From positions 1-64,000 of the forward strand of contig NZ_JAENIM010000016.1 of NCBI RefSeq assembly GCF_016595495.1: a DNA stretch of 64,000 nucleotides. Reading direction: 5' to 3'. Below, in pieces: positions 596 to 63,537 of the stretch; position 1 is the first letter of the stretch; each line of letters starts with the position of its first letter. The DNA is from Persicirhabdus sediminis (GTDB taxonomy: Bacteria > Verrucomicrobiota > Verrucomicrobiia > Verrucomicrobiales > Akkermansiaceae). A model generated the notes under the pieces. That model did not search any database and had not been told where the DNA came from. It was given only the letters and a program-made list of their open reading frames with translations. Made by a program: the position numbers and the translations under genes.

Positions 596-610
596 TCGCC
601 CGACGTGGCT

Positions 611-46457: not shown

Positions 46458-46497
46458 ATTTTCACCGCTTAGCGCAATTCATTAGCTTTAAATTCAG

Positions 46498-46530
46498 CGA
46501 GGTCCTTCTGGGCCTCGCTTAATTTTTTTG
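46498..46530 (+). terminator. Rho-independent terminator after the hem operon
   Basis: GCGAGGTCC-ttct-GGGCCTCGC then TTAATTTTTTT. Confidence 0.65.
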
Positions 46531-47075: not shown

Positions 47076-47762
47076 TTGTGGGTGTTTAATGGATTTATGA
47101 GTGATTTAGAATCGGCTGGACCAAAAATAAGCATACAAGCTGGCTTTGCGATTGGGTACAAAAGTGCCCTTGCTACTGCGGCTGATGAGGTGGAGTTAGC
47201 TGAGGGTACGCATTATCTGCTTGCCCGTAATGGGCGAGGGAAAACAACGCTTTTGCGCTCGCTGGCTGGAGTTTTGCAGTTGCGAGGCGGTGATTTCACT
47301 ATAGTGGGGCAAAATCAGTTTTTAAGTGAGGATATTTGCTTTGATCGTGAGTTGCCAGCTAAGTTGATTTTTAGATGTCTGCTGCCGAAGCAGGTGCTGG
47401 GCGAAGTGATGGATTTGGCTGACAAGCTTGAGCTGGATACCAAGCTTCCATATGGCAAGCTTTCAACTGGTAACCAACGCAAGGTTGCGTTGATCATGGC
47501 TGAATATGCAGTCGACCCTGATCAGGGAAATATTTTGTTATTGGATGAGCCGTTCACAGGCATGGATGTGTATGCCCGTGAAATTTTTCAAGACCTTTGG
47601 AAGTCACGCAAGAATGGTATATTGCGGGTTCTGAGCTGTCATCCGGATCAAGACAGTATGGTTATGGAGAGCGCTCTGATCATTAGTGATGGCAAGCTCT
47701 ACCATCTGGCGGGCGCTGAAAAGGCTGCAGAGTGGAGAGAACTAAAGAAAGAATTACACTAA
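47076..47762 (+). CDS. ABC-type ATPase with divergent motifs
   Basis: Walker A ARNGRGKTTLL, signature LSTGNQRKVAL, Walker B LLLDEPFTGMD. Confidence 0.55.
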   Translation: MWVFNGFMSDLESAGPKISIQAGFAIGYKSALATAADEVELAEGTHYLLARNGRGKTTLLRSLAGVLQLRGGDFTIVGQNQFLSEDICFDRELPAKLIFRCLLPKQVLGEVMDLADKLELDTKLPYGKLSTGNQRKVALIMAEYAVDPDQGNILLLDEPFTGMDVYAREIFQDLWKSRKNGILRVLSCHPDQDSMVMESALIISDGKLYHLAGAEKAAEWRELKKELH

Positions 47763-47769
47763 TAGGCTG

Positions 47770-48534
47770 ATGACTATTTTTAGATTAAGTTTAGCAACAT
47801 TGATACAGCGTAAAGTCTGGGTGATCGCTTTATTGTTAGCGCTCCTCTGTCCGATGGTGCTGCCCTACATGACGCCGGTAGATGTTAGCCCTGCTCTGCT
47901 GCCGCCAGCGCGAGCGCAGATGGCGTGGAATATTTTATGGATTTTGACTTTGTTCTGGCTGCTATTTCAATCGGCGCGATTTGGTGAAGATCATAGTAAA
48001 TCTGGCATGGGTGCTTATTTCCTTAGTCGCGGTCAGGGACGTTTGCAGCAACTACTACAGCTATGGCTCGCGAATCTAAGCATGCTGCTTGCCTTGTTGG
48101 TTATTACCGTTCTGATGTGTTTGATTTTTGCGATGCCTGAGGATCCAGTGCAGGCTTCACAGTGGCGTCTACTGAACGGGCAATACTTTGTTCTAGTATT
48201 ATTAAGCATGGCTCCATTGATGTTATTGGCCACGGCTTTAGGTAGTAGGTTTGGATCAACGATTGCTTATGTAGTCCCTGTCTTTTTAGCCCTATATGGT
48301 ATGTATGGTGTAGGTTACCTGCAGACGATGACGACGATGCGCATGAGTCCAGCGCTTGAGTGGATCTATGTTGTTTCGCCGCACTACCATTTAGCTGAGT
48401 TGACAACACGTATGGTATTCAAACAGGGGCACCTATTGGTCAGCGATTTCATACCGATAGTGGGGTACTTCTGTTGTTTGGCGATGTTGTTATTCTCTCT
48501 GTCCGCGCTTATATTCAAAGCTAAAGCTGTTTAA
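47770..48534 (+). CDS. Polytopic membrane protein, putative ABC-2-type permease partner
   Basis: About six TM helices, directly downstream of the ABC ATPase. Confidence 0.4.
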   Translation: MTIFRLSLATLIQRKVWVIALLLALLCPMVLPYMTPVDVSPALLPPARAQMAWNILWILTLFWLLFQSARFGEDHSKSGMGAYFLSRGQGRLQQLLQLWLANLSMLLALLVITVLMCLIFAMPEDPVQASQWRLLNGQYFVLVLLSMAPLMLLATALGSRFGSTIAYVVPVFLALYGMYGVGYLQTMTTMRMSPALEWIYVVSPHYHLAELTTRMVFKQGHLLVSDFIPIVGYFCCLAMLLFSLSALIFKAKAV

Positions 48535-48552
48535 TGTGTCTTTAGATATCGT

Positions 48553-49452
48553 ATGTGTGTCTCAATGAAATATCGGTTTGCTTGGTTTGCTTTGATGTTA
48601 GTTTCTCTAGCTGCCGCTCTTGCAATGGTGTCCGCGCTGGATACTCGAGGGTTGATTGAATACGATCCAAATATTGCAGGCGTGAAGGGGAGCGCCTATG
48701 GGAAAGTTGCTGGTAAAATGGTTCAAGGCGATGTTAGTTTTTATTTCCACCGTGGAACTTCTCACGAGCATAACCACGCATTGGGTGAAGAGTGCGAAGA
48801 GTGCGACTCGCATGCTGCTAGTGTGCATGTGCATGATGAAAATTGCGATCACGGGCCCGATCTTGTTTCCTCTCAACAGAAGGATAAACCGCTACGTGTG
48901 CGTGCATTGAGTCATATTGAGTTAATGGAAGCTACGGTTCATAGAAATAACAGTGGCTTCTATCTGACTGATCAGCATGATTATTACTTGAGGCAAGAGA
49001 CCGAAAAGTTGTTAAAGTTTGCCTACGAGTTAGATCCGACCAATTATGTTAATTACTCTAACTATTATTTCTATCTGCAGATTTCAGATGGCTTAGGTAC
49101 AACTGAGGTAGGTGAATATGATTTGGATATGTTGACTGAAAATACCCTCAAATTCGTGGCAAACGATAACGAGGATCCGCGCGCACAACTCACTGCGATG
49201 AATGCGATCATCAATAGGATGTATATGGTCACGCGTAATCCTGGTAAGTATACATCCGCTGATACTGATAAGTTAGTCATTGAGTATGAGAGCTTTTCTA
49301 ATAAATATATTGAGGTGAGGGCTACAGCTGAGAGTCAGGGGAGATTGGCTATGGTTTCCGCGCAAGAGCGAGCGGATATGGATGAGCGGTATAGGTTCCT
49401 GAGTAGACTGTTTGAGTCCTTTGTTATTGTTTTTGAGCGGGATATGAAATAA
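48553..49452 (+). CDS. Secreted His/Cys/Glu-rich hypothetical protein
   Basis: Signal peptide followed by HRGTSHEHNHALGEECEECDSHAASVHVHDENCDHG, a metal-binding-like cluster. Confidence 0.4.
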   Translation: MCVSMKYRFAWFALMLVSLAAALAMVSALDTRGLIEYDPNIAGVKGSAYGKVAGKMVQGDVSFYFHRGTSHEHNHALGEECEECDSHAASVHVHDENCDHGPDLVSSQQKDKPLRVRALSHIELMEATVHRNNSGFYLTDQHDYYLRQETEKLLKFAYELDPTNYVNYSNYYFYLQISDGLGTTEVGEYDLDMLTENTLKFVANDNEDPRAQLTAMNAIINRMYMVTRNPGKYTSADTDKLVIEYESFSNKYIEVRATAESQGRLAMVSAQERADMDERYRFLSRLFESFVIVFERDMK

Positions 49453-49470
49453 TATCTAATAATTGTAATT

Positions 49471-50739
49471 ATGTTTAATCAAAATGATGCTATCTCGCCC
49501 CCTCCGCTTCCTCAAAGTGCTGAGGCTTTAACATTCCAGCCAGCAATGACTGGAGCGGAGTTGCTAGGGGTGATGTTTAAGGTTTGTGAAAGCCGAGGGG
49601 TCTCTGATATTCAGATACGATCTGGCTTGCCTATCTATATCGAAACTCACCTAGGTATGGAGTGTTTGGATCATCTTGGGGTATTAGAATCTCCTCAGGT
49701 TGATGAAATCTACAAGGAGTTGATTCGCCATCGAGAAAGCGGCAGTCATGGTTTTGGTCTTTCTGAATCAGCGGAAATGCACGCAGAGCACAAAATCCAA
49801 GATAAGATGGGGGATTTCTTGGAATCTAAAGTGGATGACTTTTCTTGTAATGGTATCAAGATTATTGGCACTGATCGATATTCTGGACGTCTGCGTATTC
49901 AGACTCACTTATCGGCAAATGGTCTTGGCATTACTTGTCGTATTCTCAATGACTCGATTCCAAATTTGGAGTCTCTGGGAATTGACCAGGATACAGCTCA
50001 CACATTAAAGATGGCTGTGCAGCGTCGTGCTGGGCTCTGTTTGGTGACTGGGCCGACAGGTTCAGGTAAATCAACTACTTTGGCAGCCTTGATTGATTGG
50101 GCTCGCCGCAATTTCCCGAAGCACATCGTCACCTGTGAGGATCCTGTAGAATACCAGTATCCTAACGATATGGATGATCCTGATCGACCTGGCTTTAAGG
50201 TGATGGCTCCTAGTATTGTCACCCAGCAGGAAGTTGGGCGTGATATTGAATCCTACAGGCAGGGGTTGAAGGATGTTTTGCGTAAAGCGCCTCATATTAT
50301 TCTCCTTGGTGAGATTCGCGATCGCGAAGCCATGGAAACCTGTATGGAAGCTGCACAAACAGGTCACTTAGTACTTTCAACCTTGCATACAACTGGCGCC
50401 GTTAAGACGATTGGTCGTATTCTGGAGATGTATCCACGCGAAAGTCATCCAGCTGTTTTGAATCGATTAAGTGAAATTCTAATTTTCATTCACTCGCAGG
50501 GTTTACTAAATGGACAAAGTGGGCGCGTTCTAACCTACGAATTTCTGCAAAATAGTGATGATGCAGTTGCTTCATCCATAGGCGCTTACGATAAGGGGTC
50601 AGGGGCGCTAGAGGATGCAATTAAACGCGCGGGCAATATTCCTTGGGATTTGAACTTGCAACGGCTCTACGAACAGGGCAAAATCTCTGTTGAAGTGTAT
50701 GAAAATGCACGCATGCATAGAGAATCTACTGATATATAA
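49471..50739 (+). CDS. PilT/PilU-like secretion ATPase (type IV pilus retraction ATPase family) with an extra N-terminal domain of about 150 aa
   Basis: LVTGPTGSGKSTTLAALIDW, IVTCEDPVEYQ, ILLGEIRDREAMETCMEAAQTGHLVLSTLHT. Confidence 0.8.
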   Translation: MFNQNDAISPPPLPQSAEALTFQPAMTGAELLGVMFKVCESRGVSDIQIRSGLPIYIETHLGMECLDHLGVLESPQVDEIYKELIRHRESGSHGFGLSESAEMHAEHKIQDKMGDFLESKVDDFSCNGIKIIGTDRYSGRLRIQTHLSANGLGITCRILNDSIPNLESLGIDQDTAHTLKMAVQRRAGLCLVTGPTGSGKSTTLAALIDWARRNFPKHIVTCEDPVEYQYPNDMDDPDRPGFKVMAPSIVTQQEVGRDIESYRQGLKDVLRKAPHIILLGEIRDREAMETCMEAAQTGHLVLSTLHTTGAVKTIGRILEMYPRESHPAVLNRLSEILIFIHSQGLLNGQSGRVLTYEFLQNSDDAVASSIGAYDKGSGALEDAIKRAGNIPWDLNLQRLYEQGKISVEVYENARMHRESTDI

Positions 50740-50846
50740 TATACATAACTAAACACAGTTGGTTTTCATCAAATGCATATAAAAATTTGGCGGAAGTAAA
50801 ATTCCGTTGATACACCCCATAAATAAAAACAAAATATAATACGAAT

Positions 50847-51254
50847 ATGAAACTAAATACAAATAAGGCAGTACTCAAGCCAGGTATGACACTGATCGAG
50901 CTTACAATCGTAATTCTCGTTTTGATCACACTCATCAGTGTGCTGTTCATTGGTGCTAAGGCCTATAAAGAAGGTGCTGATAACGCCACTTGTATCCTTA
51001 ACCAAGAGCAAGTTCAGAAAGCTGTTCGTTCTCACCAGAACATGAATGCTAAGAATGATACCGAATCATTCCCGCACGATGAAGTTTTTGGTGCTACAGG
51101 TATCATTTCTGAGCCAACTGAACCAACCGAGCCAGATAATCTTTATGCTGGTATGCAGGACGATGTTTACCCGGTAGTAGGTACAGCTTACATCTCATGT
51201 ACTACAACAAACGGTAATGGCCCACACGCACCAGCTTCAACTGAAGGTTGGTAA
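50847..51254 (+). CDS. Pseudopilin/pilin with a prepilin-type N-terminal cleavage/methylation domain
   Basis: MKLNTNKAVLKPG|MTLIELTIVILVLITLISVLF: Gly at -1, Glu at +5, hydrophobic helix. Confidence 0.7.
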   Translation: MKLNTNKAVLKPGMTLIELTIVILVLITLISVLFIGAKAYKEGADNATCILNQEQVQKAVRSHQNMNAKNDTESFPHDEVFGATGIISEPTEPTEPDNLYAGMQDDVYPVVGTAYISCTTTNGNGPHAPASTEGW

Positions 51255-51290
51255 TACCTGAGTTTTTTGACTCAACCTATTATTTCTTAG

Positions 51291-51326
51291 TCCCCTTCCT
51301 GGTATAGGGAAGGGGATTATTTTTAT
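51291..51326 (+). terminator. Rho-independent terminator after the pseudopilin gene
   Basis: CCCCTTCC-tggtatag-GGAAGGGG then ATTATTTTTAT. Confidence 0.55.
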
Positions 51327-51352
51327 CGCGATCCCATTACTGAATTATTGTT

Positions 51353-53104
51353 TTGAAAGAGTTCTATCACCCATCGGATCAAAACCCCTTTGCTGCTTAT
51401 CGACAAGCGGTATACTTCGCAAAAAAGACGACACGCGGCAGTAATGAAAATTGGTATAAATCCCCTGTAGAGCAGGATTGCCAAGTGCATCTGTACCTCG
51501 ATGGTTCAGATTCCGTTAACTATTTCATTTGGTCTACAGAGCAAGGTTTGTATACCAAGTCAGGCTCAATCAGCCTTGAGGACCTGTCAGACAAAGAGCA
51601 GCAGGTTAAGTTTGTTGGCAAGATCCTTGCCGGCGAAGGCGGAGCAGCTGATTCGATCGGATTTGTTTTCTACTTAGCCAATGAGTTTTCACTCGCAGCT
51701 ATCGGGCCTGATCATAAATTAAAGTCGAATTTCGCCGAGTTAGTTGAGGAGCTGACGGTAAGTCCAGCTGAAGTTCTTGAAGATAAGTCGATGGTCGCTG
51801 ATGAACGAGCTTTGTGTTTGTTCCCCTACCAGGGGGCTACTGGAGGTAATGATCAGTCAACCGTGGTTGTATTATCTCGTGAATACGAGGGTATTGTTGA
51901 TAATTTCCGTGAAATTGCGGACGAAAAAGATTTTCCTATTGTTGTTGCCGCTGTTAGTGCTCCGCTTTGTGCCTTGTTAGCATTGCCAGTTATTTGGGCT
52001 TCCAGAGATGATAGGGGTGTTGTTGTGGTCTACAACTACAGAACCTTTTCAATGCTGGCCTATTTTGATGCTAAAGGCGAGCTGTGTACTCTGCGTACAC
52101 TACAGCATCACGAGGGTAGTCAGTGCCCTAAAGATATTGGTCGCACTGTGCAGATGACTGCTGTGGCTATGGAGTTAGAGGACCCTGATGTACACATCAT
52201 TTCGATGGCTGATCACGACGTTACTGATGTTATTTTGAATATCGGTAGTGCGATGTATGCGTCGGAGATACGTGAGGTGACATTTGCTGAATTACAGCAA
52301 CGAGGGGGGCTTCAAGAAGGCGTTTTTGTTGAGGCTGCTCTGGTAAATAAAGTGTACGATCCTAGTGTTTATCCAATCGTCGAGAATAAGACTTTTACAG
52401 ACTTGCTAGAGTCTAAATATCATCTGCAAGACTTTTTAGTGCCGCCATCTGATATGCAGGAGGTTTACCCTGTGCATGGTGAAATTAAGCTAATGCAGAT
52501 GGTAAAAAAAATCCGTTTAGCGGTATTTGCATTGGCTGCGGTGATTGCCATCTACTTTAGTTTGTCAGCGGTCTCAACAATGGCTAAACCAGAATGGGGG
52601 CATAGAGCAATGAATCACGCTGCTGCTCAAATTAAAATCAATCAACAGATTAACGCTTATAAAAAATGGGATAATTTATTAGCAGATCGTTCTAAGGCAT
52701 GGGAGGTGATTGAGTTAGTGTCACGTACCTTTTCCGATGGTGGCGTTGAACTCACTAATGTGACTTATGATTGTACCGTGAAGGAGAAGTCTACGCGCAG
52801 TGTTGGATCTGACGATGAAGGGCTTCACAAAAGCTACTCGATAACAGGTAATGCTGATGCAAATGTGATCGATAAGTTGATCAAGTATGATACTCGAGAT
52901 GGTGGAGAGATGTTTTTTTCTGAGCTTTTTGAGGCCACTAAAATTGCTTCCTTTGAGCCTGCTGATACTAGGGATTTCGGCATTGCGTTCCAATACCGTA
53001 GTGCAAATTCACGTGGTGATGAGGGGCTGCCTTACAGCTTTACATTGCAAATAACCCAGAAATACTCTAAAGATGATCCGTTGGCTTTATTGTCATCAAA
53101 TTAA
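51353..53104 (+). CDS. Bitopic assembly protein (cytoplasmic about 390 aa, one TM, periplasmic about 180 aa). Topology resembles GspL or a PilM-PilN fusion.
   Basis: A single central TM (IRLAVFALAAVIAIYFSLSAV). The position inside the secretion cluster is suggestive. No sequence motif recognised. Confidence 0.35.
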   Translation: MKEFYHPSDQNPFAAYRQAVYFAKKTTRGSNENWYKSPVEQDCQVHLYLDGSDSVNYFIWSTEQGLYTKSGSISLEDLSDKEQQVKFVGKILAGEGGAADSIGFVFYLANEFSLAAIGPDHKLKSNFAELVEELTVSPAEVLEDKSMVADERALCLFPYQGATGGNDQSTVVVLSREYEGIVDNFREIADEKDFPIVVAAVSAPLCALLALPVIWASRDDRGVVVVYNYRTFSMLAYFDAKGELCTLRTLQHHEGSQCPKDIGRTVQMTAVAMELEDPDVHIISMADHDVTDVILNIGSAMYASEIREVTFAELQQRGGLQEGVFVEAALVNKVYDPSVYPIVENKTFTDLLESKYHLQDFLVPPSDMQEVYPVHGEIKLMQMVKKIRLAVFALAAVIAIYFSLSAVSTMAKPEWGHRAMNHAAAQIKINQQINAYKKWDNLLADRSKAWEVIELVSRTFSDGGVELTNVTYDCTVKEKSTRSVGSDDEGLHKSYSITGNADANVIDKLIKYDTRDGGEMFFSELFEATKIASFEPADTRDFGIAFQYRSANSRGDEGLPYSFTLQITQKYSKDDPLALLSSN

Positions 53105-53119
53105 GATTATTCAGAAACG

Positions 53120-53662
53120 TTGATGAAAACGAATTTATATAAAACTAGCATCATAATCTTTGGATTAGTTGTTCCTGTGGTACTTAGTTTGATCGTGATA
53201 GCTGTTTGTTATGGCTATAAATCCAGTACGGAAAAAACTTACAAAAAAAACAAATCTGATTACCTCGCTGAAATTCAGTCTCAGAAGGTTATTGATCGTC
53301 TGCAAAAAGACTTATCTGGAAAGAAGGACCAGCTGGAAGCATGGGAAGCTCAGGTTTCTGAGGAGAGCATTGTACAGCTCGGTAATGAGTTTCGTAAATT
53401 GCAGGCAAAGTACCCAAGTGATGTTCTGAGAAGAAATTCAGCCAATAAAGGAACCCAAAGCTCAGGCATGGGGAAAACTACTAAACAGACCTCTAATAGC
53501 TGGATCTTTGATTATAACGGCACTTTAACGGTAATGCAAAAAGCCCTGTTTGAGCTTGAAACTGAAATGCCGCAGATGCAATTGGATAAAATGACTATCC
53601 GTAAAGCTAGCAATGAAAATTTGCTACAATTTAACCTTAACTACACATCTTGGGAAAAATGA
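53120..53662 (+). CDS. N-terminally anchored periplasmic protein (GspM/PilO-like by position and topology)
   Basis: N-terminal TM IIIFGLVVPVVLSLIVIAVCY, coiled-coil periplasmic part. Overlaps the next ORF by 13 nt. Confidence 0.3.
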   Translation: MMKTNLYKTSIIIFGLVVPVVLSLIVIAVCYGYKSSTEKTYKKNKSDYLAEIQSQKVIDRLQKDLSGKKDQLEAWEAQVSEESIVQLGNEFRKLQAKYPSDVLRRNSANKGTQSSGMGKTTKQTSNSWIFDYNGTLTVMQKALFELETEMPQMQLDKMTIRKASNENLLQFNLNYTSWEK

Positions 53663-54240
53663 AGATTTCGAAATGCATAATAACTATCTTATTGGTATCT
53701 TCGCTAAGCTCATTTGCTGAGGCTGCTGAAGGTGATGATGCTCAGATAGGGCAGTCACGTTTTTTGGGGGAAAATAAAAGCGCGTACATCTCAGAGGTTT
53801 CAGCTAAGTTCGCTATGGGAGGTAGAGAGAAAGATCCATTTGGTTTACCTCAAGACCCTAACAAGGTTCCAGTGCAAAAAGCAGCTGCTCCTAAGCTAGC
53901 GCCAGTAAAGCGGGCGACGCCACTTCAGGACGTTGTTAATGAATTGGTGATTAATGCTCATATGCCAGCTTCAAAAGAGTTTATGGTCGGCGCTCGTATC
54001 CTCAAAGAGGGGCAGGTTATTCCGATGATCTTTGGCGGAGAGAAGAAGCGGGTTCAGATCACTGAGGTAGGCCGTGACGTGATCGTGTTTACGGATTTGG
54101 AGAGCAAAGAAAAGGTAGTACGTAAAATGAACGAGCTGCCGGATGGCGTCAATGAACTTGAAGGAGTTGAAGGCGTTCAGTCTGTGGAAGGTTTTCAGCG
54201 TGCGGATGAAGCGAATCAGGCTCCGATCGAGGTTCGGTAA
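53650..54240 (+). CDS. Secreted protein (PilP/GspC-like by position)
   Basis: Signal peptide ITILLVSSLSSFAEAA. Lies directly upstream of the secretin. Confidence 0.3.
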   Translation: MGKMKISKCIITILLVSSLSSFAEAAEGDDAQIGQSRFLGENKSAYISEVSAKFAMGGREKDPFGLPQDPNKVPVQKAAAPKLAPVKRATPLQDVVNELVINAHMPASKEFMVGARILKEGQVIPMIFGGEKKRVQITEVGRDVIVFTDLESKEKVVRKMNELPDGVNELEGVEGVQSVEGFQRADEANQAPIEVR

Positions 54241-54325
54241 TATTTAACCCCAGGGCCCCCCTTAATAACACCCAAATACATATATAAGGGAATACCCCCA
54301 CACATAGGTAACTAAAAATAATACG

Positions 54326-55897
54326 ATGAAAAAACTAGTAATGACCATGATGGCACTGTCGGTGCCAGTGACGCCGCTAATGGCGCAGGATATGTCTGCA
54401 GGCGCAGGTGAAGCTGTAGTTGAGCAGGTAGAACAGGCAGCAGCGGCTGTTGATCAGGCGGCCAACCCGCAAGGGGATGTCGTAGGCGAAGAAATGCCTG
54501 CTACGGAGGAAGTTGTAGGTGAAGCGCTTGTTGTTGACGGCCAAGAGCAGGACACAGTGCAAGCGGGTGATGGATCTTATAAAATCACCAACGCAAAGCT
54601 GAATGATATTTTCCTATTACTCGCGAAGAAGGCTGATAAGCAGTATTTCTACAATGATCAAATTGCAGAGCGTACAGTAACTGGTCACTTGAATGGTGAT
54701 CTTAATCCACTGAAGCAAATGGAGGAGCTCGCTTACCAATACGGTCTTCGTATGTATGAGCGCGGTAATACTGTTTACGCGATGACAGAAGCTCAGCTTG
54801 ACCAACTTCCAGCTACTGAGTGGAGCTACCAACTGCGTTATCTTCGTCCATCTGACATGAGCCAAATCAAAATGTTGATTTCTCCATTGCTCACACCAGG
54901 TCGTGGCATCGTCAACTTTGAGCCAAAAACAAATACCCTTGTGATTATTGATTCAGTCAATCGCATGGAAAGAGTGAAAGCTCTGCTCGCTAAGATTGAC
55001 AAACCTAAGGGGCAAATCGTTGTGGAAGTTAAAGTTCTTCGCGTTAACCGTAATGAAGGTAGCTACCGTGGTACTGATTGGTCTAGCACTTTGGGTCGCA
55101 GCGGACTTTCAATCAATACAGTTGCAAGTTTGAACAATGTATTTGGTATCCCATCTGCCGCTGTAGGTGATGCTGTAGGCATCTCTGGAGGAGCAATTCT
55201 CTCTGAAACATCTACAGCTAACGTGATTTTGAGCCCTGTTGAATTGCAGGCCGTTGTCCGCGCACTGGATGAAAACGGGATTGCAACACAACAGTCAAAC
55301 CCTGTTGTGATCACGGAAGATAACGAAGCTGCTCTGGTAGCTCTCATTGATCGTTACCCAATCATCACAACAACAACTAACCAAGGAACAAGCACAAGTT
55401 CTGTATCTGAGGAAGTTCGTTACACAATTGATGAAAGTGATTCTACTGATCCAGAAAATACACGTGAGATTGGTGTGACACTATCTTTAACTCCAACACT
55501 GCTTCCTGATGGCACAGTACGTATGAATATGCGTCCTCGTGTAGCTCAGATCACGGAGTTCATTTCTAGCGCAGTTACAGAGAACACATATCCACGTGTT
55601 AGCGAAGCCACAATCGATACGATTGCCCGTATCCCAGATGGTCACTCACTGGTTGTCGGTGGTTTCTTCACTGAAGAAAGCCGCAAGGACAAGAATGGTA
55701 TCCCTATCTTAGGCAAGATTCCAGTTCTTAACTTCTTCTTCGGCAGTGAGTCTGATACTCAGGAGAAAGCTAGCCTTTGCTTCATCATTACTCCGACTTC
55801 ATATGACCCAGCTGATCGCTCAGCGAATGATCATCATTCGAATAAAGCGCATAATTTCCTTCACGGAAATCAAGCTGTACCAGCTGCAGGGAAGTAA
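54326..55897 (+). CDS. Secretin (GspD/PilQ family outer-membrane channel)
   Basis: Signal peptide. N-domains. C-terminal secretin core VVGGFFTEESRKDKNGIPILGKIPVLNFFFGSE. Confidence 0.85.
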   Translation: MKKLVMTMMALSVPVTPLMAQDMSAGAGEAVVEQVEQAAAAVDQAANPQGDVVGEEMPATEEVVGEALVVDGQEQDTVQAGDGSYKITNAKLNDIFLLLAKKADKQYFYNDQIAERTVTGHLNGDLNPLKQMEELAYQYGLRMYERGNTVYAMTEAQLDQLPATEWSYQLRYLRPSDMSQIKMLISPLLTPGRGIVNFEPKTNTLVIIDSVNRMERVKALLAKIDKPKGQIVVEVKVLRVNRNEGSYRGTDWSSTLGRSGLSINTVASLNNVFGIPSAAVGDAVGISGGAILSETSTANVILSPVELQAVVRALDENGIATQQSNPVVITEDNEAALVALIDRYPIITTTTNQGTSTSSVSEEVRYTIDESDSTDPENTREIGVTLSLTPTLLPDGTVRMNMRPRVAQITEFISSAVTENTYPRVSEATIDTIARIPDGHSLVVGGFFTEESRKDKNGIPILGKIPVLNFFFGSESDTQEKASLCFIITPTSYDPADRSANDHHSNKAHNFLHGNQAVPAAGK

Positions 55898-55916
55898 TTT
55901 TAGGTTGTTTAATTTA

Positions 55917-55958
55917 AATCCCCTCGTCGCTGGAGTCATCCAGGGGAGGGGATTTTTA
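55917..55958 (+). terminator. Terminator-like hairpin after the secretin gene
   Basis: ATCCCCTC...(inner hairpin CTGGA-gtcat-CCAG)...GAGGGGAT then TTTTATT. Confidence 0.5.
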
Positions 55959-55999
55959 TTCCAACATCGTAGACCCCTAAAACCCGTTAATATTAAATT

Positions 56000-56578
56000 A
56001 TGGAAGTAGGAGCAGGAGAGCCTAAATTGCCGAAAATTAATGTAAAAAGTGCATTTGTGCCATCACACATGGAGCACTCACTTTTGCATACACTTCGTAT
56101 TATTCAGGAGTTAGATCTAGCAACCCATGACGAGTGCATGAAGGTTCGTATGAAGGTCCGTGGTAAATGGGAGCTGGGACAGCCAGCGGATGCGGTTGAG
56201 GTTCTGGCCAGAATGCAGGGGCGTCCTGATGAGATTCTTGACGAGTCTATCGAAAGGATTTCGCAAAAATTGGCAGGATCGTGTGTGATCCCGCCTGCTC
56301 GTATTCCGTTTGCATCTCGATTTGAGATGCCAATGGCATTTTACGACAAATATCCAGATTTACAGAAGTTAGCCAGAAACTACAAAGCTCCGGTTTTGTA
56401 TGCTGAGGAAGCTGACGTGATTGGTATTGGCTCGGTTAATCCATATTTTGCTGAGGCATTTGCCCAGTCTATTGAAAAACAAATTTTTGCCCAATTGGGC
56501 ACCAAACCAATTATTACTATTGTGCGTCTTGAGCCAGTTAGTTGGCAGAAACTTTGTAAAACCCACTTTAAGATATGA
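56000..56578 (+). CDS. Hypothetical cytoplasmic protein upstream of gspE
   Basis: ORF only. The stop overlaps the gspE start. Confidence 0.3.
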   Translation: MEVGAGEPKLPKINVKSAFVPSHMEHSLLHTLRIIQELDLATHDECMKVRMKVRGKWELGQPADAVEVLARMQGRPDEILDESIERISQKLAGSCVIPPARIPFASRFEMPMAFYDKYPDLQKLARNYKAPVLYAEEADVIGIGSVNPYFAEAFAQSIEKQIFAQLGTKPIITIVRLEPVSWQKLCKTHFKI

Positions 56579-58266
56579 TCGAGTTTGACGGAATTAAATT
56601 AAACAAACTGATCTCTAAGCGAGTCATGGCTGCTCTTGTTGAGCATGATGCTAGTTTAAAAGATTGTGAGCCAAATGCGCTAGATTCAAAAGTCACTAAG
56701 ATCGCCTTTGGAGCAGTGATGGCCAAAGTTAACAGCTTGCCATTTTTTCCTAAGGTAGCAGATTTTTGCCAGCAGCAACTGCTTGAGCGTTGTGACCCAC
56801 AGGTACTTATTCGCGAGGGGTTTACACCTTTGTGCTTTGACGATAGGCGCTTGATTGTTGCTGTTGTTAACCCGTGGAATACAGCTCCTGATGAGTATAT
56901 CGCACTGCGCTTTCCTGATACGGAAATTGTTAAGTTAGTTACTCTAGCTTCGGAAATTTCCAGCGCCATTGGCCAATCACCTACTTCAGCCGCTCCTAGT
57001 CAGGAGCAGTTAGAGGCCATCGATGTTGAGGATACTGAGGATGATGTTACCGATTTTGATGTCACCAAGGAATATGATGAGCCAATCGCGCAGTTGATTG
57101 CGACTATCATGGCTGATGCTGTTAACCAGCGTGCGTCAGATATTCACTTCAAGGTGGAAAAGGAAATTTTCTATTACAGCTTCCGGGTCAATGGTGATTT
57201 GGGTAAGCGCACTGAGGTGCCAATGAAACTCAAGGATCGTCTGGACGCGTACCTGCTGAACTTGATGAAGCTGGCGGCTGAGGAACGAAATGTTAAACCA
57301 GGTATCTCTGGCCGTTTCACGATTTCCTACTTCCAGCGTCCGATTGATATTCGATATGAACGTCACAGGACCTATCGAGGTTATCACATTACCATGCGAT
57401 TGCTCGATAAAGGGCACTTGAACGTTGCTCTCGGTAAAGGCTCTCTGGCCTTTGATGAGCAGACACTGTTTGAGCTCTATCGTGTGATGAAAGTTCCAGC
57501 TGGAATTATTGTGATGAGTGGACCTACGGGTTCAGGAAAATCTACCACATTGAACGCAATTCTACGTGAACTGAATACTCCGGAGGTGAATATTCTTACT
57601 CTGGAAAACCCGGTTGAGGATGAAGTTCCAGGCGTTACTCACTGTGACTTGAAGAGTCCGGATGAGTTTAAGCCTATGATTTCAAGTTTCATGCGTTCTG
57701 ATCCAGATATTATTCTCATGGGTGAGGTGCGTGATATTGAGTCTGCTGAACTAGCTATTGAGGCTGCCGTTACTGGTCACAAAGTTCTGACAACAATTCA
57801 CACCCCGCGAGCATCTCAGATTCTTGAGCGATTCGAACAGCTAGGTATTGAGCGTTGGAAGATCGCTCAGACATTGAAGGCAGCTTGTGCTCAGCGTTTG
57901 GTGAAGACCCTGTGTCCTCACTGTAAGGTGGAGCTCGAAGGTGTCTCAGAACTGGATTGCCGTCTATTCAATCTACCAGATGAATGGTTGACGACTAAAG
58001 TCTATGAGCGTAATCTACAAGGTTGTGAGGAATGTCATGGAGGTGGTTATGTCGGACGAACAGCTATCCTTGAGATCATCCCTATTACCCCTAAAATTTC
58101 TGACATGTTATCAAAAGGAGAAATATCCCCATACGAGCTTGAAGTAAAAATTCATGAAGAGGGAGTTCTGCCTAACCTGCGTCGTAGCGGCTTGAGGCTA
58201 TTCAAAGAAGGGAAAACCGATCTAAAGGCAATCAGTAAAATGATTGATATGACTTATACAGAATAA
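56575..58266 (+). CDS. GspE/PilB-family secretion ATPase (assembly ATPase) with an N-terminal GspE_N-like domain and a tetracysteine Zn motif
   Basis: VMSGPTGSGKSTTLNAIL, ILTLENPVEDEV, IILMGEVRDIESAELAIEAAVTGHKVLTTIHT, CPHC...CEEC. Confidence 0.9.
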   Translation: MIEFDGIKLNKLISKRVMAALVEHDASLKDCEPNALDSKVTKIAFGAVMAKVNSLPFFPKVADFCQQQLLERCDPQVLIREGFTPLCFDDRRLIVAVVNPWNTAPDEYIALRFPDTEIVKLVTLASEISSAIGQSPTSAAPSQEQLEAIDVEDTEDDVTDFDVTKEYDEPIAQLIATIMADAVNQRASDIHFKVEKEIFYYSFRVNGDLGKRTEVPMKLKDRLDAYLLNLMKLAAEERNVKPGISGRFTISYFQRPIDIRYERHRTYRGYHITMRLLDKGHLNVALGKGSLAFDEQTLFELYRVMKVPAGIIVMSGPTGSGKSTTLNAILRELNTPEVNILTLENPVEDEVPGVTHCDLKSPDEFKPMISSFMRSDPDIILMGEVRDIESAELAIEAAVTGHKVLTTIHTPRASQILERFEQLGIERWKIAQTLKAACAQRLVKTLCPHCKVELEGVSELDCRLFNLPDEWLTTKVYERNLQGCEECHGGGYVGRTAILEIIPITPKISDMLSKGEISPYELEVKIHEEGVLPNLRRSGLRLFKEGKTDLKAISKMIDMTYTE

Positions 58267-59459
58267 TGAGTGAACAAGCACAAACTCAGGCCGCGCCAGC
58301 GGCTGCTAGCCAGGATGGAGGGGGCCAAGGGCGCGCTCGTACCGTGGCGAGACGTAAGACAACTAAGAAACAAGGCTTAGGCCAGAAGGAGATCCATTTA
58401 TTTGGAAATGGGGTAAAGCTCTTTAGCAAGAAAGAACAAGTCCACTTATTTAAAGGCTTGGCTTCCATGCTGAAAGCGCAGATTAGTACAGCTGATGCGC
58501 TCAAATTCTATGCTAACGGCCACCCTAATAAAGTGTTGGCCGGCGCTCTGTTGGCAATAGCCCATGATGTGAATGATGGTATTTCCATTCACGAAGCATT
58601 TCGGAGATCGAAGAAGTTTGACGAGATGACTATCGGTCTTGTTCAAGCGGGTGGCGATTCTGGTCAGCTCTATCAGGCGTTTGCTGATTTATCCAAACGT
58701 ATCACTACAGAGATGGCGTTCCGCAAGAAAATCAAAAAGGCGATTATGATTCCATGTATCGTGATGCCTATCTTGATGGGTGCCTTCATTGCTTCGCAGG
58801 TGAAAATTGTACCGCAGGTGCAAGGCATGATGAGCGGTATGAGTCAGGAGCCAGATGGCATGATTGCGCTCTCTTTCACTATCAGTGAATATACCCAAGA
58901 ATATTGGGTATTAGTGGTTCTATCAATGATTGCTATTGTGGTTACCATTTTCCTATCAGCCGTGGTTAAGAACATTATTCTTAATATCTGTATGGCTAGG
59001 ATTAAGGTCATCAGGCAATTGATTATGAGTTTGAGGCAGATGACTTTCCTTTCAACCATGCGTCTCCTCTATTCTAATGGTATTAGCCTAGCTAAGTCTA
59101 TCAAGGTGAGTGCAAATTCTGTTAAAGGAACACCATTTTATGGTGAGCTTAATTCAGCTGCAGAAAAGTATGAAAAGCAAGGTCTCTCCTTATCAAATGC
59201 TTTTGCCAAGTTCACTTCGGTAGACCAGCAAGTTGTACACATGTTGGCGATTGGTGAAAAATCTGCTTCTCTCGACGTTCAGTTAGAATTGTTGGCAGAG
59301 ATGTATGAGGAAAGCGCGGATGAGTTGATGGATACCTTTACTGGGTTTATTAGTACGGTTGTTTTGATTATGGCTGGTGTATTAGTTGCCGCTATTTTCA
59401 TTGGAACATTCATGCCTATCTTCTTGATGGGACCTAAGATGATGAATCAGGCTCACTAA
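58266..59459 (+). CDS. GspF/PilC-family platform protein
   Basis: 397 aa, three TM segments, duplicated GspF domain. The start overlaps the gspE stop. Confidence 0.8.
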   Translation: MSEQAQTQAAPAAASQDGGGQGRARTVARRKTTKKQGLGQKEIHLFGNGVKLFSKKEQVHLFKGLASMLKAQISTADALKFYANGHPNKVLAGALLAIAHDVNDGISIHEAFRRSKKFDEMTIGLVQAGGDSGQLYQAFADLSKRITTEMAFRKKIKKAIMIPCIVMPILMGAFIASQVKIVPQVQGMMSGMSQEPDGMIALSFTISEYTQEYWVLVVLSMIAIVVTIFLSAVVKNIILNICMARIKVIRQLIMSLRQMTFLSTMRLLYSNGISLAKSIKVSANSVKGTPFYGELNSAAEKYEKQGLSLSNAFAKFTSVDQQVVHMLAIGEKSASLDVQLELLAEMYEESADELMDTFTGFISTVVLIMAGVLVAAIFIGTFMPIFLMGPKMMNQAH

Positions 59460-59471
59460 CATAATATTATT

Positions 59472-59900
59472 ATGGTTCAAACTAGACTCGACCGCTGGCT
59501 TAAGGAGAAGTTCATTTACGTAACTCATGTATATGTGCTGCGTATGCCGGATTTTAAACTGCCGCGTGGCTCAAAAGTACAGGAGTTAGGCGCAGAGAAA
59601 GTAGGTAACTACAGCCTTCGCATTATTGTAGCGTCTAATTCCGCCGTCGAAGATCTCACGAATAAGCTGAGAGATAGTCGGCAGATGTATGCGGTCAAAG
59701 TGGTTGAGTCTAATCCATGGTTTGGGCGATTCATCGCTCCGAAATCACAATCTTTTACCTACAGGATTGTGTTCTCCATAATGACGGTTGGAGCTTTATA
59801 TAGCTCTTGGGTCTGCTTTAAGTGGTTTATGGCAACACCTGAACTATCGGATATTATTAAAAAAACCTTCTATCAGTTCACTTCGGGTGACTTCAATTAA
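59472..59900 (+). CDS. Hypothetical protein with a C-terminal TM helix
   Basis: ORF only. Confidence 0.3.
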   Translation: MVQTRLDRWLKEKFIYVTHVYVLRMPDFKLPRGSKVQELGAEKVGNYSLRIIVASNSAVEDLTNKLRDSRQMYAVKVVESNPWFGRFIAPKSQSFTYRIVFSIMTVGALYSSWVCFKWFMATPELSDIIKKTFYQFTSGDFN

Positions 59901-59914
59901 AAGCGGAAATAAGT

Positions 59915-60316
59915 ATGAAGAATATACAAACTAGGTCGACCAAAAGTGGAACGACATTAATTGAGATGACTATCGTCATCATGGTGATCTTGATCATTAT
60001 GGGGGTGGCTACGATGTCTATGAACCAATATCGTGATTGGGCTACGAAGCAGGAGGCTATCGAAGACCTGCGATCTGTTCATATGTCTCAAAAAGCATAC
60101 TTGGCGGATAATCCAACTAAGGGGCCAAGCACGCTGACTGAGGCTTTGATTACGCCATACATGCCTAACCAAGCATCTTTCCCTACCTTTAAAGATAAAG
60201 ATGATAAGCCGCTTGAGGTAACGATTACGACCGTACCCCCAACGCTTAGCGGACACCCGACAGGTGGAAGCGATGATATGGAGGATGGCCAATGGAATCC
60301 TCTAGCTAATGATTAA
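59915..60316 (+). CDS. Second pseudopilin with a prepilin-type N-terminus
   Basis: MKNIQTRSTKSG|TTLIEMTIVIMVILIIMGV: Gly -1, Glu +5. Confidence 0.7.
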   Translation: MKNIQTRSTKSGTTLIEMTIVIMVILIIMGVATMSMNQYRDWATKQEAIEDLRSVHMSQKAYLADNPTKGPSTLTEALITPYMPNQASFPTFKDKDDKPLEVTITTVPPTLSGHPTGGSDDMEDGQWNPLAND

Positions 60317-60363
60317 TTTATTTCAGCCGCATCAAATAGCGAATGCTTTTGGTGCGGCTGATG

Positions 60364-60398
60364 TGCCTTGCTAGCTTGCCAAGGCAGTTTCTTTTTTT
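60364..60398 (+). terminator. Rho-independent terminator after the pseudopilin gene
   Basis: TGCCTTG-ctagcttgc-CAAGGCA then GTTTCTTTTTTTG. An upstream hairpin CAGCCGCA...TGCGGCTG lies at about 60325-60360. Confidence 0.6.
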
Positions 60399-60403
60399 GA
60401 TTT

Positions 60404-60838
60404 GTGCTTCGATATATATTTTCATTCTGGTTTTTATTGGTCGTAGGTTTGTCAGCTAATCCATCTGACTTGCCAGATGGTTACCGCTTGGTGAATCACT
60501 ACCAGATCGTGTCTAAAACCAAGGTCGAAGGACAAGATGTTGTTCAGTTTGATATCAAACCTGTTAGCTATTGGGTTTATACTGATGGCATGGAGGTTCG
60601 TTTGTATCTCAATCAGGCGACAAATTACCACACGAGTTACGAGGTTTACCGCGCAGATGGTGTTTCTCATCTTGATGATTCAGGCGACCTAACTTTAGCT
60701 CCTGGCTTGCAGGCATTTTCAGCTAATGGCAATATTCTTCGGCAGCTTAGTTTGACGGAAAATGAACTGGTTTTGACCTCCTTTCCGCCACGCTCGGCGC
60801 AGATAGTAATCATGCGGGCGACGGCTGTTGCGAAATAG
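60404..60838 (+). CDS. Small secreted hypothetical protein
   Basis: Signal-like N-terminus (IFSFWFLLVVGLSA), β-rich. Confidence 0.35.
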   Translation: MLRYIFSFWFLLVVGLSANPSDLPDGYRLVNHYQIVSKTKVEGQDVVQFDIKPVSYWVYTDGMEVRLYLNQATNYHTSYEVYRADGVSHLDDSGDLTLAPGLQAFSANGNILRQLSLTENELVLTSFPPRSAQIVIMRATAVAK

Positions 60839-61010
60839 CCAATTGCTTTTGGTTTAAGCTATTGATTATCAGGGTTGGTAGGTTGATTGATTATGTTCTG
60901 GCTAGATCGATTTGTTGATTTCTGAATAATCAATCACTAGTCAAATTTTATGCCATTTGATGGAGTGACAAGCGACGCGTGAGCTGATAAATAATTAACG
61001 TCACAAGTTT

Positions 61011-61805
61011 ATGAAACCGGATACTTTAACACCAACGCCCCCTCGACAAACGGCACCAAATTATCGTAAGGAGATGGGCGGAATTCCTCCGTGGTTATTT
61101 TCAGCCAGCATGTTACTGAGTGCGGTTTTGTTCATCCTTTATCTAAATAAGCCTGTGTACAATGCTCCAATGGTTACACAGCAATCTCCTCAGACGGTGG
61201 ATCCCTACGAGTTGATGGAGCAGGAAATGTATAAGCAGGACTACTCCAGTCCGCCAGCAACTGATGCGGATTTTGATTTTGAAGATGATCTTGTTAATGT
61301 GTCTCCAAACTCCAATGTACTTCCTGGTAGAGAAGTTACTGAAGTAGGAGAAGAGCAGCCAGCCAAGACAAATCACCCTAAGGCAGTTGATCTTACTAGT
61401 GTTGATATCGACACTCCCGAGGTGAAAAATGCTAATCCAGAAGATGGCTGGGAGCCGACTAACCTCAAAGTCCAACATGTGCTTAATGCTCAGTGGGGCA
61501 ATGGGAGCCAGCAGAAAATTATGCTAGAAGTTCCGGTTCTTTACCATAGCCGGAGTTTTCATTGGACGGCTGATGATATCAGGAAGGCTCGTGAGATTCT
61601 CCGCAGGTTACAAATTTATGAAAACAACATCGCCCGTTTGAAGGCTGAGGGGGACGCCATCATGCTTCAGTGGAATATGTTAGCTGAGAGTAGTATGCCT
61701 GTGGATACACTGCGGGCTGACAGCCCAAGCCTCAATCAGACCATTACAGGGGGGAAAGCTAACTTGCTGCCAGCTGGAAACGAACAAGTAGAAATCATTA
61801 AGTAA
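61011..61805 (+). CDS. Hypothetical membrane-anchored protein
   Basis: N-terminal TM (WLFSASMLLSAVLFILYL). C-terminal coiled-coil-like segment. Confidence 0.35.
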   Translation: MKPDTLTPTPPRQTAPNYRKEMGGIPPWLFSASMLLSAVLFILYLNKPVYNAPMVTQQSPQTVDPYELMEQEMYKQDYSSPPATDADFDFEDDLVNVSPNSNVLPGREVTEVGEEQPAKTNHPKAVDLTSVDIDTPEVKNANPEDGWEPTNLKVQHVLNAQWGNGSQQKIMLEVPVLYHSRSFHWTADDIRKAREILRRLQIYENNIARLKAEGDAIMLQWNMLAESSMPVDTLRADSPSLNQTITGGKANLLPAGNEQVEIIK

Positions 61806-61810
61806 TCAGA

Positions 61811-62461
61811 ATGATGAAGAATCTAATAGATGTAAATGGCTCTCTTTTCTCTCTAGCGACGATTGCATTTCTAGCAGCCAGTTCATCTGCGTTTGCTCAA
61901 GAGGTTGACGAGAAAGAAATTGAGACGGCTCCACAGGTGGTAGAAATTGATGAAGATAGCGTCATGCTCTCCGATCCAACAGATACACTGGCTGAAGTGG
62001 TAGAGGAAACATTGCCGACGTATGTTGACGAGAATGAAGTCCAGGAGACACCGCGAATGGTTATCGAGTTAGAAGGTGGCGGAAATTATCGCCGCTCTCC
62101 GAATCTAGAAATTTTATCTCCATGGGCACCTAAGCCACTCAGTAAAACTCCAGTAGGATGGAAATTGATTCCTGCGGCTAGTATTGTTCCTGAATATACT
62201 GAGACTGTAAAATTATCATCAAATGACCGCATCCAGCTAGCTGTGAGACCCTATATTCTCATCCCTGACACTGAGATGAGTCGTGGTGTGGCGGTTTCTG
62301 AGCCAGGTTATGATGCCGCGTTAGGTTACGCTCAGCATTCAACCGTCGGAGCTATGCTTCAGAAAAATCAAAAATCATTAGAATCTGCTAGCAAACAAGC
62401 GAATAGCGCGATTGATCAGTTGCAGGCATTGTTGGACACTTTACCAGCTACAAATCCATGA
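61811..62461 (+). CDS. Secreted acidic hypothetical protein
   Basis: Signal peptide LATIAFLAASSSAFAQE. Stop overlaps the next ORF. Confidence 0.35.
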   Translation: MMKNLIDVNGSLFSLATIAFLAASSSAFAQEVDEKEIETAPQVVEIDEDSVMLSDPTDTLAEVVEETLPTYVDENEVQETPRMVIELEGGGNYRRSPNLEILSPWAPKPLSKTPVGWKLIPAASIVPEYTETVKLSSNDRIQLAVRPYILIPDTEMSRGVAVSEPGYDAALGYAQHSTVGAMLQKNQKSLESASKQANSAIDQLQALLDTLPATNP

Positions 62462-62934
62462 AGAGTTCATTTGTATTCACTTGTGCTAGTTTGATTGTCA
62501 CTATGTTAGTGGTGGCCATTATGACGCACCGGCAATCAGCTGAATTGGTTAGTGATTTCCAGCTGCAAGATAAAAACACCATGCCGCTAGAGGGGGAATC
62601 GCCTGATTTTACAACTACCGCTACGCAATCGCAGCAGGTGATGTTGGTTAGTCATGGCGGGGAAAATGTAGCTGCCTCGGGTGAAGTTGATGCGGCCTAT
62701 GCTGCCGAGCTGGACAAAAAATTAGACAGAGTGATTTCATTGATGGATCGCCTTGATCAACGACAAGCAAACTTCCAGCGCCAATTGGCTGAAACCAATC
62801 GTGATCTCACAGAATTACATTTTCGCGTGGATACTCACGATGAGTCATTCCGTCCGTTGAAGCTTAAATATGAGCCGCCTAAGGCGCAGACAGAGTTTGC
62901 TGGTGATCATATGCTTTTGCCGCCAAAGATGTAG
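62458..62934 (+). CDS. Hypothetical N-terminally anchored protein
   Basis: N-terminal TM. Translationally coupled to the upstream ORF. Confidence 0.3.
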   Translation: MKSSFVFTCASLIVTMLVVAIMTHRQSAELVSDFQLQDKNTMPLEGESPDFTTTATQSQQVMLVSHGGENVAASGEVDAAYAAELDKKLDRVISLMDRLDQRQANFQRQLAETNRDLTELHFRVDTHDESFRPLKLKYEPPKAQTEFAGDHMLLPPKM

Positions 62935-62949
62935 TCATATCTTTAAGCC

Positions 62950-63537
62950 GTGATGATGAATAAACCTGTAGCCGCTCTGATAGGCAGCGTATTTCTCACT
63001 GCTAGTTCAGCCATTGCTGCTCCTATTTTAGCGCCGCCATTTGGATTGCAGTGGGGCGAGGGCACATCTCATGTCATTCACTGGGCTCAGGAGCAGAAGC
63101 TAGAAATTAGCGTTAAGTTCCCATCCAAAGATCAGCGTCTTCGTGAGGTGATTATCAATTCGAAAAGCGGTAATTTGCCAGCCCATTTAGCTAGTTCGCT
63201 AGAGGTTTATTACCTCAAAGATAAGCTCTATGAGGTGCGCGTGCAATATGATGGCAAAGGGAAAAGCACTGCAGCCGTCGAGCGTGATTTGAACCAAGTT
63301 AGAAAAGATCTCGCAGCGCAATACGGTAACTTTGTTCCCGACGCTGAGCGCGACCGCACGGTGGATCAATTCCGCTATCTATCAAATTCCTATCGCATTC
63401 AGCCGATTGACGGGCTGAGTTTGATTGTGATGATGACAAAAGTTGAGGACTTACTACGCAGAAAATCCGCTGCCAAATTCACCGTCATCTACCGCAACCA
63501 GAACATCTACAACCAGGTTCTAGCTGGCGGTCGTTAG
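62950..63537 (+). CDS. Secreted hypothetical protein
   Basis: Signal peptide ALIGSVFLTASSAIAAP. Confidence 0.35.
   Translation: MMMNKPVAALIGSVFLTASSAIAAPILAPPFGLQWGEGTSHVIHWAQEQKLEISVKFPSKDQRLREVIINSKSGNLPAHLASSLEVYYLKDKLYEVRVQYDGKGKSTAAVERDLNQVRKDLAAQYGNFVPDAERDRTVDQFRYLSNSYRIQPIDGLSLIVMMTKVEDLLRRKSAAKFTVIYRNQNIYNQVLAGGR

Follow-up and report, generated by a model that had tools for sequence, protein, structure and literature searches.

A conserved gene module in Persicirhabdus sediminis

Within a 64,000-nucleotide stretch of Persicirhabdus sediminis DNA (hereafter the window, positions 1-64000), a run of 19 open reading frames (ORFs) occupies positions 47076-63537, all on the + strand and with inter-ORF spacers of -13 to 172 nt; we number them genes 1 to 19. 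An earlier note, made from the sequence alone, had described a type II secretion or type IV pilus-like locus here, preceded by an AT-rich gap at 46458-47075. Our ORF check of the window bore out the coordinates and direction of all 19 frames, and the gap has a GC content of 40.8%, compared with 44.5% in the locus and 48.7% elsewhere in the window. The locus forms a single self-contained, operon-like unit of about 16.5 kb with 18 genes and a possible 19th, and we are highly confident that it is a genuine, coherent and widely conserved, as yet uncharacterised variant of the type IV filament superfamily. The NCBI annotation of P. sediminis names only the obvious genes, as GspE/PulE family, PilT and type II secretion system (T2SS) F family proteins, and we found no literature on any described Verrucomicrobial system of this kind.

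The extent of conservation was assessed with the 583-aa protein encoded by gene 6, for which a word-indexed search returned only 9 close homologues and an exhaustive profile search 209 cluster representatives, while a scan of species-representative genomes placed the family in 159 genomes. All titled loci of this family are from Verrucomicrobiota except one labelled merely as an uncultured bacterium, and the carriers fall within Akkermansiaceae/Verrucomicrobiaceae, including Haloferula, Luteolibacter and Oceaniferula and some cultured strains. Synteny was counted over 40 related Verrucomicrobiales loci with full 10-kb flanks. Each of genes 1-13 occurs in 38-40 of these, each of genes 14-17 in 32-35 and gene 18 in 23, the gene order is almost always that of the window, and mean orthologue identities span 27% (gene 3) to 71% (the assembly ATPase, gene 11). 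In the relatives examined, the genes flanking the module vary from genome to genome. Because they are conserved collinearly while the flanks vary, we regard the ABC transporter, the His/Cys-rich protein, the PilT-like ATPase and four of the five proteins previously listed as cargo candidates as parts of one inherited unit. At five loci (L002, L040, L055, L065 and L072) the module stops after gene 13, with the second pilin and genes 15-18 absent at the site; the tail is therefore a separable sub-module.

The leader at 46458-47075, to which no strand is assigned, is the likely promoter region of the module. It contains the strong terminator of the upstream cysG/hemD gene (46496-46519, a 10-pair hairpin followed by a T-run). 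A promoter scan gave a result no better than for shuffled sequence, and Rfam and tRNA scans found no RNA elements inside the locus. A close relative, the metagenome-assembled genome GCA_947496435.1 (L001), carries the same locus; nucleotide homology with it begins at 47006, upstream of which the two genomes differ, with another gene standing there in L001. Strong terminators were found only before gene 1 and after gene 5.

ATPases, platform and secretin

The earlier note had recognised a secretin, a GspE/PilB ATPase, a GspF platform, a PilT-like ATPase and two pseudopilins, all of which were confirmed by Pfam, by NCBIfam or by their class III signal peptides, as was the joint occurrence of an assembly ATPase and a PilT-like ATPase in one locus of the T2SS/type IV pilus family. 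The assembly ATPase (gene 11, 56575-58266; T2SSE 273 bits) has its own N-terminal MshEN domain (25.8 bits) and a CPHC...CEEC zinc motif. It misses the cut-offs of both the PilB profile (315.6 versus 675.7) and the GspE profile (280.7 versus 630), and among PDB sequences it is about equidistant from PilB (234 bits) and GspE (218 bits). The inner-membrane platform of GspF/PilC type (gene 12, 58266-59459; T2SSF 124.7 bits in two stretches) is matched best by the GspF profile (142.4 versus a cut-off of 424), with PilC at 112.8 versus 700.

Gene 9 (54326-55897) encodes a short secretin of 523 aa (Secretin 114.9 bits, Secretin_N 38 bits) that, among PDB sequences, lies as far from GspD (62.8 bits) as from PilQ (61.8 bits). 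Its alignment to the MshL profile spans positions 4 to 288 of 290 at a score of 117.8 versus a cut-off of 250.2, and the GspD (125.8 versus 351) and PilQ (112.4 versus 284.4) cut-offs are likewise missed. In L002, the secretin gene (13064-14924 of that locus) is split into ORFs of 362 and 183 aa, reflecting either a frameshift or pseudogene or else an assembly error.

The second motor protein, a PilT/PilU-like hexameric ATPase and putative retraction motor, is the product of gene 4 (49471-50739; T2SSE 141 bits). Its best score among PDB sequences is to Thermus PilT (5fl3, 161 bits), followed by DotB (94) and GspE (87), and by these comparisons it is clearly of PilT type. What had been taken for an unusual N-terminal extension of about 150 aa turned out to be mostly an ordinary N-domain plus about 60 extra residues relative to PilT, as residues 22-353 align to positions 3-305 of the TraJ profile. 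Across the locus, no component reaches any NCBIfam equivalog cut-off. A clean mapping of all parts onto one standard profile set, which the earlier note had named as the outcome that would speak against novelty, is thus not what the profiles returned.

Pilins

Two genes encode prepilins. Gene 5 (50847-51254) carries the class III signal G|MTLIELT; members of its family have weak matches to IV_pilin_GFxxxE (32 of 34) and GspG (25 of 34), and the GspG score is 18.5 versus a cut-off of 88.9. Directly after it lies a hairpin (51288-51319, + strand) that has a 13-bp stem with a T-run and is likely a terminator or attenuator; almost every related locus has a GC-rich hairpin of about 12-14 bp at the equivalent position. 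Tandem copies of the gene occur in about 12 of 41 loci. Between the window and L001 its product is 64.5% identical (dN/dS, the ratio of non-synonymous to synonymous divergence, 0.35); the products of the neighbouring genes are 94-100% identical, and the secretin, the GSPII protein described below and the assembly ATPase 99.8-100%. The conserved hairpin, the tandem duplication and the hypervariability relative to L001 make gene 5 a good candidate for the major pilin, which it probably is, so that the absence of a major pilin remarked on previously is not supported. Gene 14 (59915-60316; signal G|TTLIEMT), present in 35 of the 40 loci with weak N_methyl and GspH/GspG matches, is a candidate minor pilin.

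Putative alignment complex and GSPII protein

Gene 6 (51353-53104, 583 aa) combines a PilM/GspL-like actin-fold domain, a membrane helix at about residues 375-411 and a periplasmic alpha/beta domain. The GspL/PilM-N topology reported earlier for this protein holds; it had also been described as lacking recognisable motifs, yet its predicted structure shows the actin-fold domain, with GspL/EpsL cytoplasmic domains among the best structural matches. The actin-fold, membrane and periplasmic parts are joined in one protein in all orthologues, and a Pfam scan of the orthologues gave no match for the periplasmic half. The first 44 residues are conserved in distant orthologues, supporting the TTG start. 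The gene call in L001 starts at Met45 (539 aa); judging from the conserved N-terminus, the longer, TTG-initiated form, which includes 51353-51484, is probably the real one.

The next two genes encode envelope proteins found in all 40 loci. Gene 7 (53120-53662, 180 aa) encodes a bitopic GspM/PilO-like protein with an N-terminal membrane helix, for which T2SSM_b was weakly matched in 13 of 33 orthologues (best E 0.0061) and a profile search against all PDB sequences gave chance-level matches only. Aligning the periplasmic stalk of gene 6 with gene 7 by hhalign, to probe for a PilN/PilO-type paralogy, gave a weak match (P 0.005). Gene 8 (53650-54240), always between gene 7 and the secretin, encodes a secreted periplasmic protein with a signal peptide in the PilP/GspC/MshK position; a Pfam scan of its orthologues and a PDB profile search returned no real matches.

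Gene 10 (56000-56578, 192 aa), which overlaps gene 11 by 4 nt, had been listed as an unknown preceding the GspE gene. Its predicted structure identifies it as a free-standing GSPII/MshEN domain, the type of domain found at the N-terminus of assembly ATPases. A Pfam scan of all orthologues gave no match, a profile search against all PDB sequences gave chance-level matches only, and hhalign against the N-domain of the ATPase aligned the expected core without significance (P 0.086). The c-di-GMP (cyclic di-GMP)-binding motif of MshEN domains is RLGxx(L/V/I)(L/V/I)xxG(L/V/I)(L/V/I); in its strict form it occurs in none of 41 sequences of the gene 10 family and none of 41 of the assembly ATPase family. 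In Thermus, GSPII domains mediate the PilMN-dependent stimulation of the PilF ATPase (PMC6325625). The expectation that many partners at this locus would have no recognisable sequence family was borne out by the Pfam and PDB searches.

ABC transporter and His/Cys-rich protein

The module opens with an ABC transporter ATP-binding protein (gene 1, 47076-47762), found in 38 of the 40 loci at a mean identity of 51%; its true start is probably near 47097, with orthologues of 215-221 aa. Gene 2 (47770-48534), found in all 40 loci, encodes a polytopic ABC-2-like permease with several hydrophobic segments, which is 75% identical to its L001 counterpart at a synonymous divergence (dS) of about 1.6. Of the ABC-like ATPase and permease proposed earlier, the ATPase stands, with ABC_tran at 33.7 bits above its cut-off of 25, while the permease matches ABC2_membrane_3 weakly (E 0.0037, 16.9 bits) and below the cut-off of 31.6. 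The bitopic product of gene 3 (48553-49452) is anchored in the membrane at its N-terminus and has a variable linker rich in His and Cys and a helical domain that is conserved. It is present in all 40 loci at 27% identity and is 51% identical to the L001 copy, and the composition of the linker is conserved, 21 of 27 orthologues having 5 or more His/Cys residues there; a Pfam scan of all orthologues and a search of PDB sequences gave no match. The ABC pair and the His/Cys-rich protein had been noted at the start of the locus, where they are indeed found, and they are conserved members of the module rather than chance neighbours.

Small and downstream envelope proteins

Gene 13 (59472-59900), which occupies the MshF position after the platform, encodes a cytoplasmic domain with a C-terminal hydrophobic helix and belongs to no known family, a Pfam scan of all orthologues and PDB sequences giving no match. 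It is present in all 40 loci; relative to L001 its identity is 84%, and it diverges together with the platform gene. Downstream of the second pilin lie four further syntenic genes of no known family. These encode a secreted beta-rich protein (gene 15, 60404-60838, 35 of 40 loci), a membrane-anchored periplasmic protein whose C-terminal coiled-coil region is conserved (gene 16, 61011-61805, 33 of 40), a secreted protein (gene 17, 61811-62461, 32 of 40) and a membrane-anchored protein with a conserved AETNRDLxxLxFRVDT segment (gene 18, 62458-62934). The count for gene 18 is 23 of 40, many loci terminating at just that point. Genes 15-18 have no Pfam match, and profiles of genes 15-17 searched against all PDB sequences gave chance-level matches only. 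In total, the locus holds about nine protein families without a database description.

The secreted product of gene 19 (62950-63537) is of uncertain membership in the module, as the gene stands at the same position only in L001. Its sole distant homologue lies upstream of the module in L058 (207-764, - strand, 33% identity), a locus without genes 16-17.

Mosaic divergence within the module

Comparison of two otherwise near-identical genomes, represented by the window and L001, shows a mosaic of divergence along the module, with the permease, gene 3, the pilin and gene 13 (in 47770-51254 and 58266-59900) reaching dS of 0.5 to above 1.6. Genes 9-11 and 14-19 define a baseline dS of 0.01-0.05, genes 4-8 are at 0.17-0.63, the platform and gene 13 at 0.53-0.95, and the permease and gene 3 at 1.6 or more. 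This suggests that the divergent stretches are imported allelic blocks, exchanged by recombination inside the operon, a pattern typical of exposed surface structures. The same two-genome pattern hints that the permease and gene 3 may be matched to the pilin.

Comparison with known systems

A generic type IV filament system has been defined by a clustered assembly ATPase, platform and pilin with class III signal, with secretin and peptidase optional (PMC6668835). The locus has all of these but the peptidase, with T2SSE at 273, T2SSF at 124.7 and Secretin at 114.9 bits and two G|xTLIE motifs, and reaches none of the profile cut-offs for T2SS, type IVa pilus (T4aP) or mannose-sensitive haemagglutinin (MSH) pilus. 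Atypical or 'generic' T2SS are on record outside Proteobacteria, for example in Chlamydiae and Bacteroidetes (PMC6668835). Like such 'generic' systems, the locus combines an ATPase, platform, pilin and secretin without fitting the specific models, but it is much richer: 18 genes are conserved, among them those for a retraction-type ATPase of its own and for an ABC module.

In gene order, the locus resembles the msh operon of Vibrio cholerae, which reads msh[H]IJKLMNEGF-BACDOPQ; MSHA retraction uses PilT, and the retraction ATPases pilTU are unlinked to that operon (bioRxiv 10.64898/2026.09.27.754871). Genes 6-14 follow the msh order of alignment proteins, secretin, accessory protein, ATPase, platform, small protein and pilin, a match that is a functional resemblance and not a gene-by-gene homology. 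Also MSH-like are the short secretin, which covers the MshL profile nearly end to end, and the ATPase with its MshEN-type N-domain. In contrast to the MSH system, the MshL cut-off is missed, the c-di-GMP motif is absent, the PilT-like gene lies inside the operon, the major pilin gene precedes the alignment genes, a single minor pilin takes the place of five or six, and the ABC module and the families of genes 15-18 are added.

Likeness to T2SS lies in the alignment protein, whose fusion of actin fold, membrane helix and periplasmic part is like that of GspL and is accompanied by a GspM-like partner (at the level of fold and architecture only), in the GspE-type tetracysteine zinc motif of gene 11 and in the short GspG-like pilin. 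Against this, the locus has a PilT-type ATPase, encodes a GSPII domain also as a separate protein and misses every Gsp equivalog cut-off, and profile scans recognised no GspC/PDZ or GspH-K at the locus, which has only two class III signals.

With T4aP the locus shares the pair of PilB-like and PilT-like ATPases, a secretin and the PilM-type fold. It differs in that the functions of PilM and PilN are fused, so that the full set of separate PilM, PilN, PilO and PilP proteins is not present, in a secretin without an AMIN-type N-terminal extension, in having no fimU-pilVWXY1 set, and in scores below the PilB, PilT, PilQ and PilC cut-offs with the AIRNLIRE motif absent. An ABC transporter within a pilus cluster has a precedent, from the literature only, in the pilGHI genes of the Myxococcus xanthus pilus cluster (PMC6060248). 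Thermus PilF differs from the arrangement seen here in carrying three GSPII domains fused to the ATPase, where the locus has one separate copy plus the ATPase's own N-domain, and no c-di-GMP motif.

Proposed mechanism and alternative explanations

We read the module as a variant that combines MSH-like gene order, a GspL-like fusion and a PilT of its own, and we lean modestly towards a short, retractile pilus that is exposed on the surface and serves adhesion or uptake as its output, rather than a classical T2SS piston. In such a machine, the prepilins of gene 5 (major) and gene 14 (minor) would presumably be cut by an unlinked prepilin peptidase. Going by family membership, the zinc-finger ATPase of gene 11 would drive polymerisation via the platform of gene 12. 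From the predicted fold of gene 6, that ATPase may be docked to the GspL-like fusion protein, which could in turn pair with the GspM/PilO-like product of gene 7, as the weak profile matches of the latter faintly suggest. The GSPII domain of gene 10 might serve as an adaptor or regulator between ATPase and actin-fold domain, and gene 8, by its position, could link the alignment complex to the short secretin of gene 9. The PilT/PilU-type product of gene 4 would depolymerise the fibre; retraction is supported because this PilT-like gene is in the operon in 40 of 40 loci, at an orthologue identity of 68%. The ABC-2-type exporter (genes 1-2), the His/Cys-rich bitopic protein of gene 3, gene 13 and the envelope genes 15-18 would be conserved accessory parts.

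Several observations weigh against a retractile surface pilus. The putative retraction motor misses the pilT_fam cut-off (236.1 versus 319.1) and, while it has a Walker A motif, the PilT hallmark AIRNLIRE is absent, its family having AVASAIANY there instead. The whole 64-kb window holds just two class III signal peptides, and related loci hold 1-4 each. A search for the prepilin peptidase motif GxGDxK found none in the window or in 87 related loci (1.38 Mb), agreeing at the level of a motif search with the earlier remark that a peptidase is absent here. With no peptidase motif and few pilin signals, essential parts must therefore be encoded elsewhere, probably including further minor pilins. 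The parts proposed for the ABC module, for gene 13 and for genes 15-18 are read from position and conservation, and the PilP/GspC-like role of gene 8 from position. Persicirhabdus, moreover, is described as non-motile, and the GspL-like fusion, the GspM-like partner and the weak GspG matches lean towards T2SS.

These last features point to a divergent T2SS, in which a periplasmic endopilus would push folded exoproteins (such as polysaccharide-degrading enzymes from genes elsewhere) through the secretin while the PilT-like ATPase only recycles the endopilus. Besides the GspL-like fusion, the weak T2SSM_b matches in 13 of 33 gene 7 orthologues and GspG as one of the commonest weak pilin matches (25 of 34), it would account for GspF as the best platform profile and for a secretin marginally closest to a GspD in the PDB, and it would extend the range of atypical T2SS reported outside Proteobacteria (PMC6668835). 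We nevertheless consider it unlikely. A PilT-type ATPase is kept in the operon in every one of the 40 loci, though PilT is frequently lost in T2SS (PMC6668835); GspC, GspH, GspI, GspJ and GspK are unrecognised and class III signal peptides number two; scores fall 2- to 5-fold short of all Gsp equivalog cut-offs; and the pilin is hypervariable between close strains, as expected of an exposed rather than a periplasmic subunit. The five proteins at 60404-63537, which bear signal peptides or anchors and lie directly downstream, had been proposed as cargo of the machine. This we hold to be improbable: the order of genes 15-18 is kept in 23-35 of 40 distant genomes at 33-40% identity, much as for structural periplasmic parts, the proteins are small (144-264 aa), two of them are membrane-anchored, and with no Pfam or solved-structure sequence match they match no known enzyme family. 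Four of the five, being small, enzyme-less and syntenic in most genomes, fit accessory parts better, and the fifth, gene 19, is not syntenic elsewhere.

At the other end of the module, genes 1-3 might be an unrelated operon that merely abuts the pilus or secretion operon, given that the ABC genes have generic family matches only and that the PilT-like gene stands between genes 1-3 and the remaining module. That is very improbable in our estimate, since the three genes stand ahead of the PilT-like gene in 38-40 of 40 loci while what lies farther upstream differs in every genome examined, the spacers around them are 7-18 nt, strong terminators occur only before gene 1 and after gene 5, and the permease and gene 3 form, relative to L001, a hyper-divergent block adjoining the divergent pilin. 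Going further in the opposite direction, the locus could be a distinct, Verrucomicrobiales-specific filament class in which the ABC exporter, its periplasmic His/Cys-rich partner (perhaps metal-binding) and the free-standing GSPII adaptor are integral, with the ABC proteins and gene 3 handling or modifying the hypervariable major pilin and being exchanged with it as an allelic block; this is possible, and we entertain it tentatively.

Significance

Soil, fresh water, the sea and the gut all harbour abundant Verrucomicrobiales, whose surface machines are, to our knowledge, almost unstudied. At least 159 species-level genomes carry the module, among them those of cultured Persicirhabdus, Haloferula and Luteolibacter strains, which makes it genetically tractable. 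It joins features that current classification holds apart, namely MSH-like order, a GspL-like fusion and an in-operon PilT. Should the ABC and His/Cys module and the stand-alone GSPII protein turn out to be essential, they would represent new accessory principles for filament assembly. Were the machine to secrete proteins, it would be a candidate for the main route by which these polysaccharide degraders export their exoenzymes.

Other features of the window

GC skew is positive in nearly all 1-kb bins and cumulative skew rises monotonically over the window (1-64000), as would be expected if the entire window belongs to a single replichore on which the + strand leads. A tyrosine recombinase of the phage integrase family is encoded at the start of the window (404-1897) and a tRNA-Leu(CAA) about 11 kb downstream (12738-12820, - strand), a possible integrated element. 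A 1702-aa protein (25495-30603) combines an AAA domain with DUF7902 and DUF3686 ('ATPase involved in DNA repair', 610 bits); before it lies a 703-aa protein without Pfam match (23221-25332) and after it a Ser/Thr kinase with GYF_2 (30718-32442), and together these genes may form a defence- or repair-type module.

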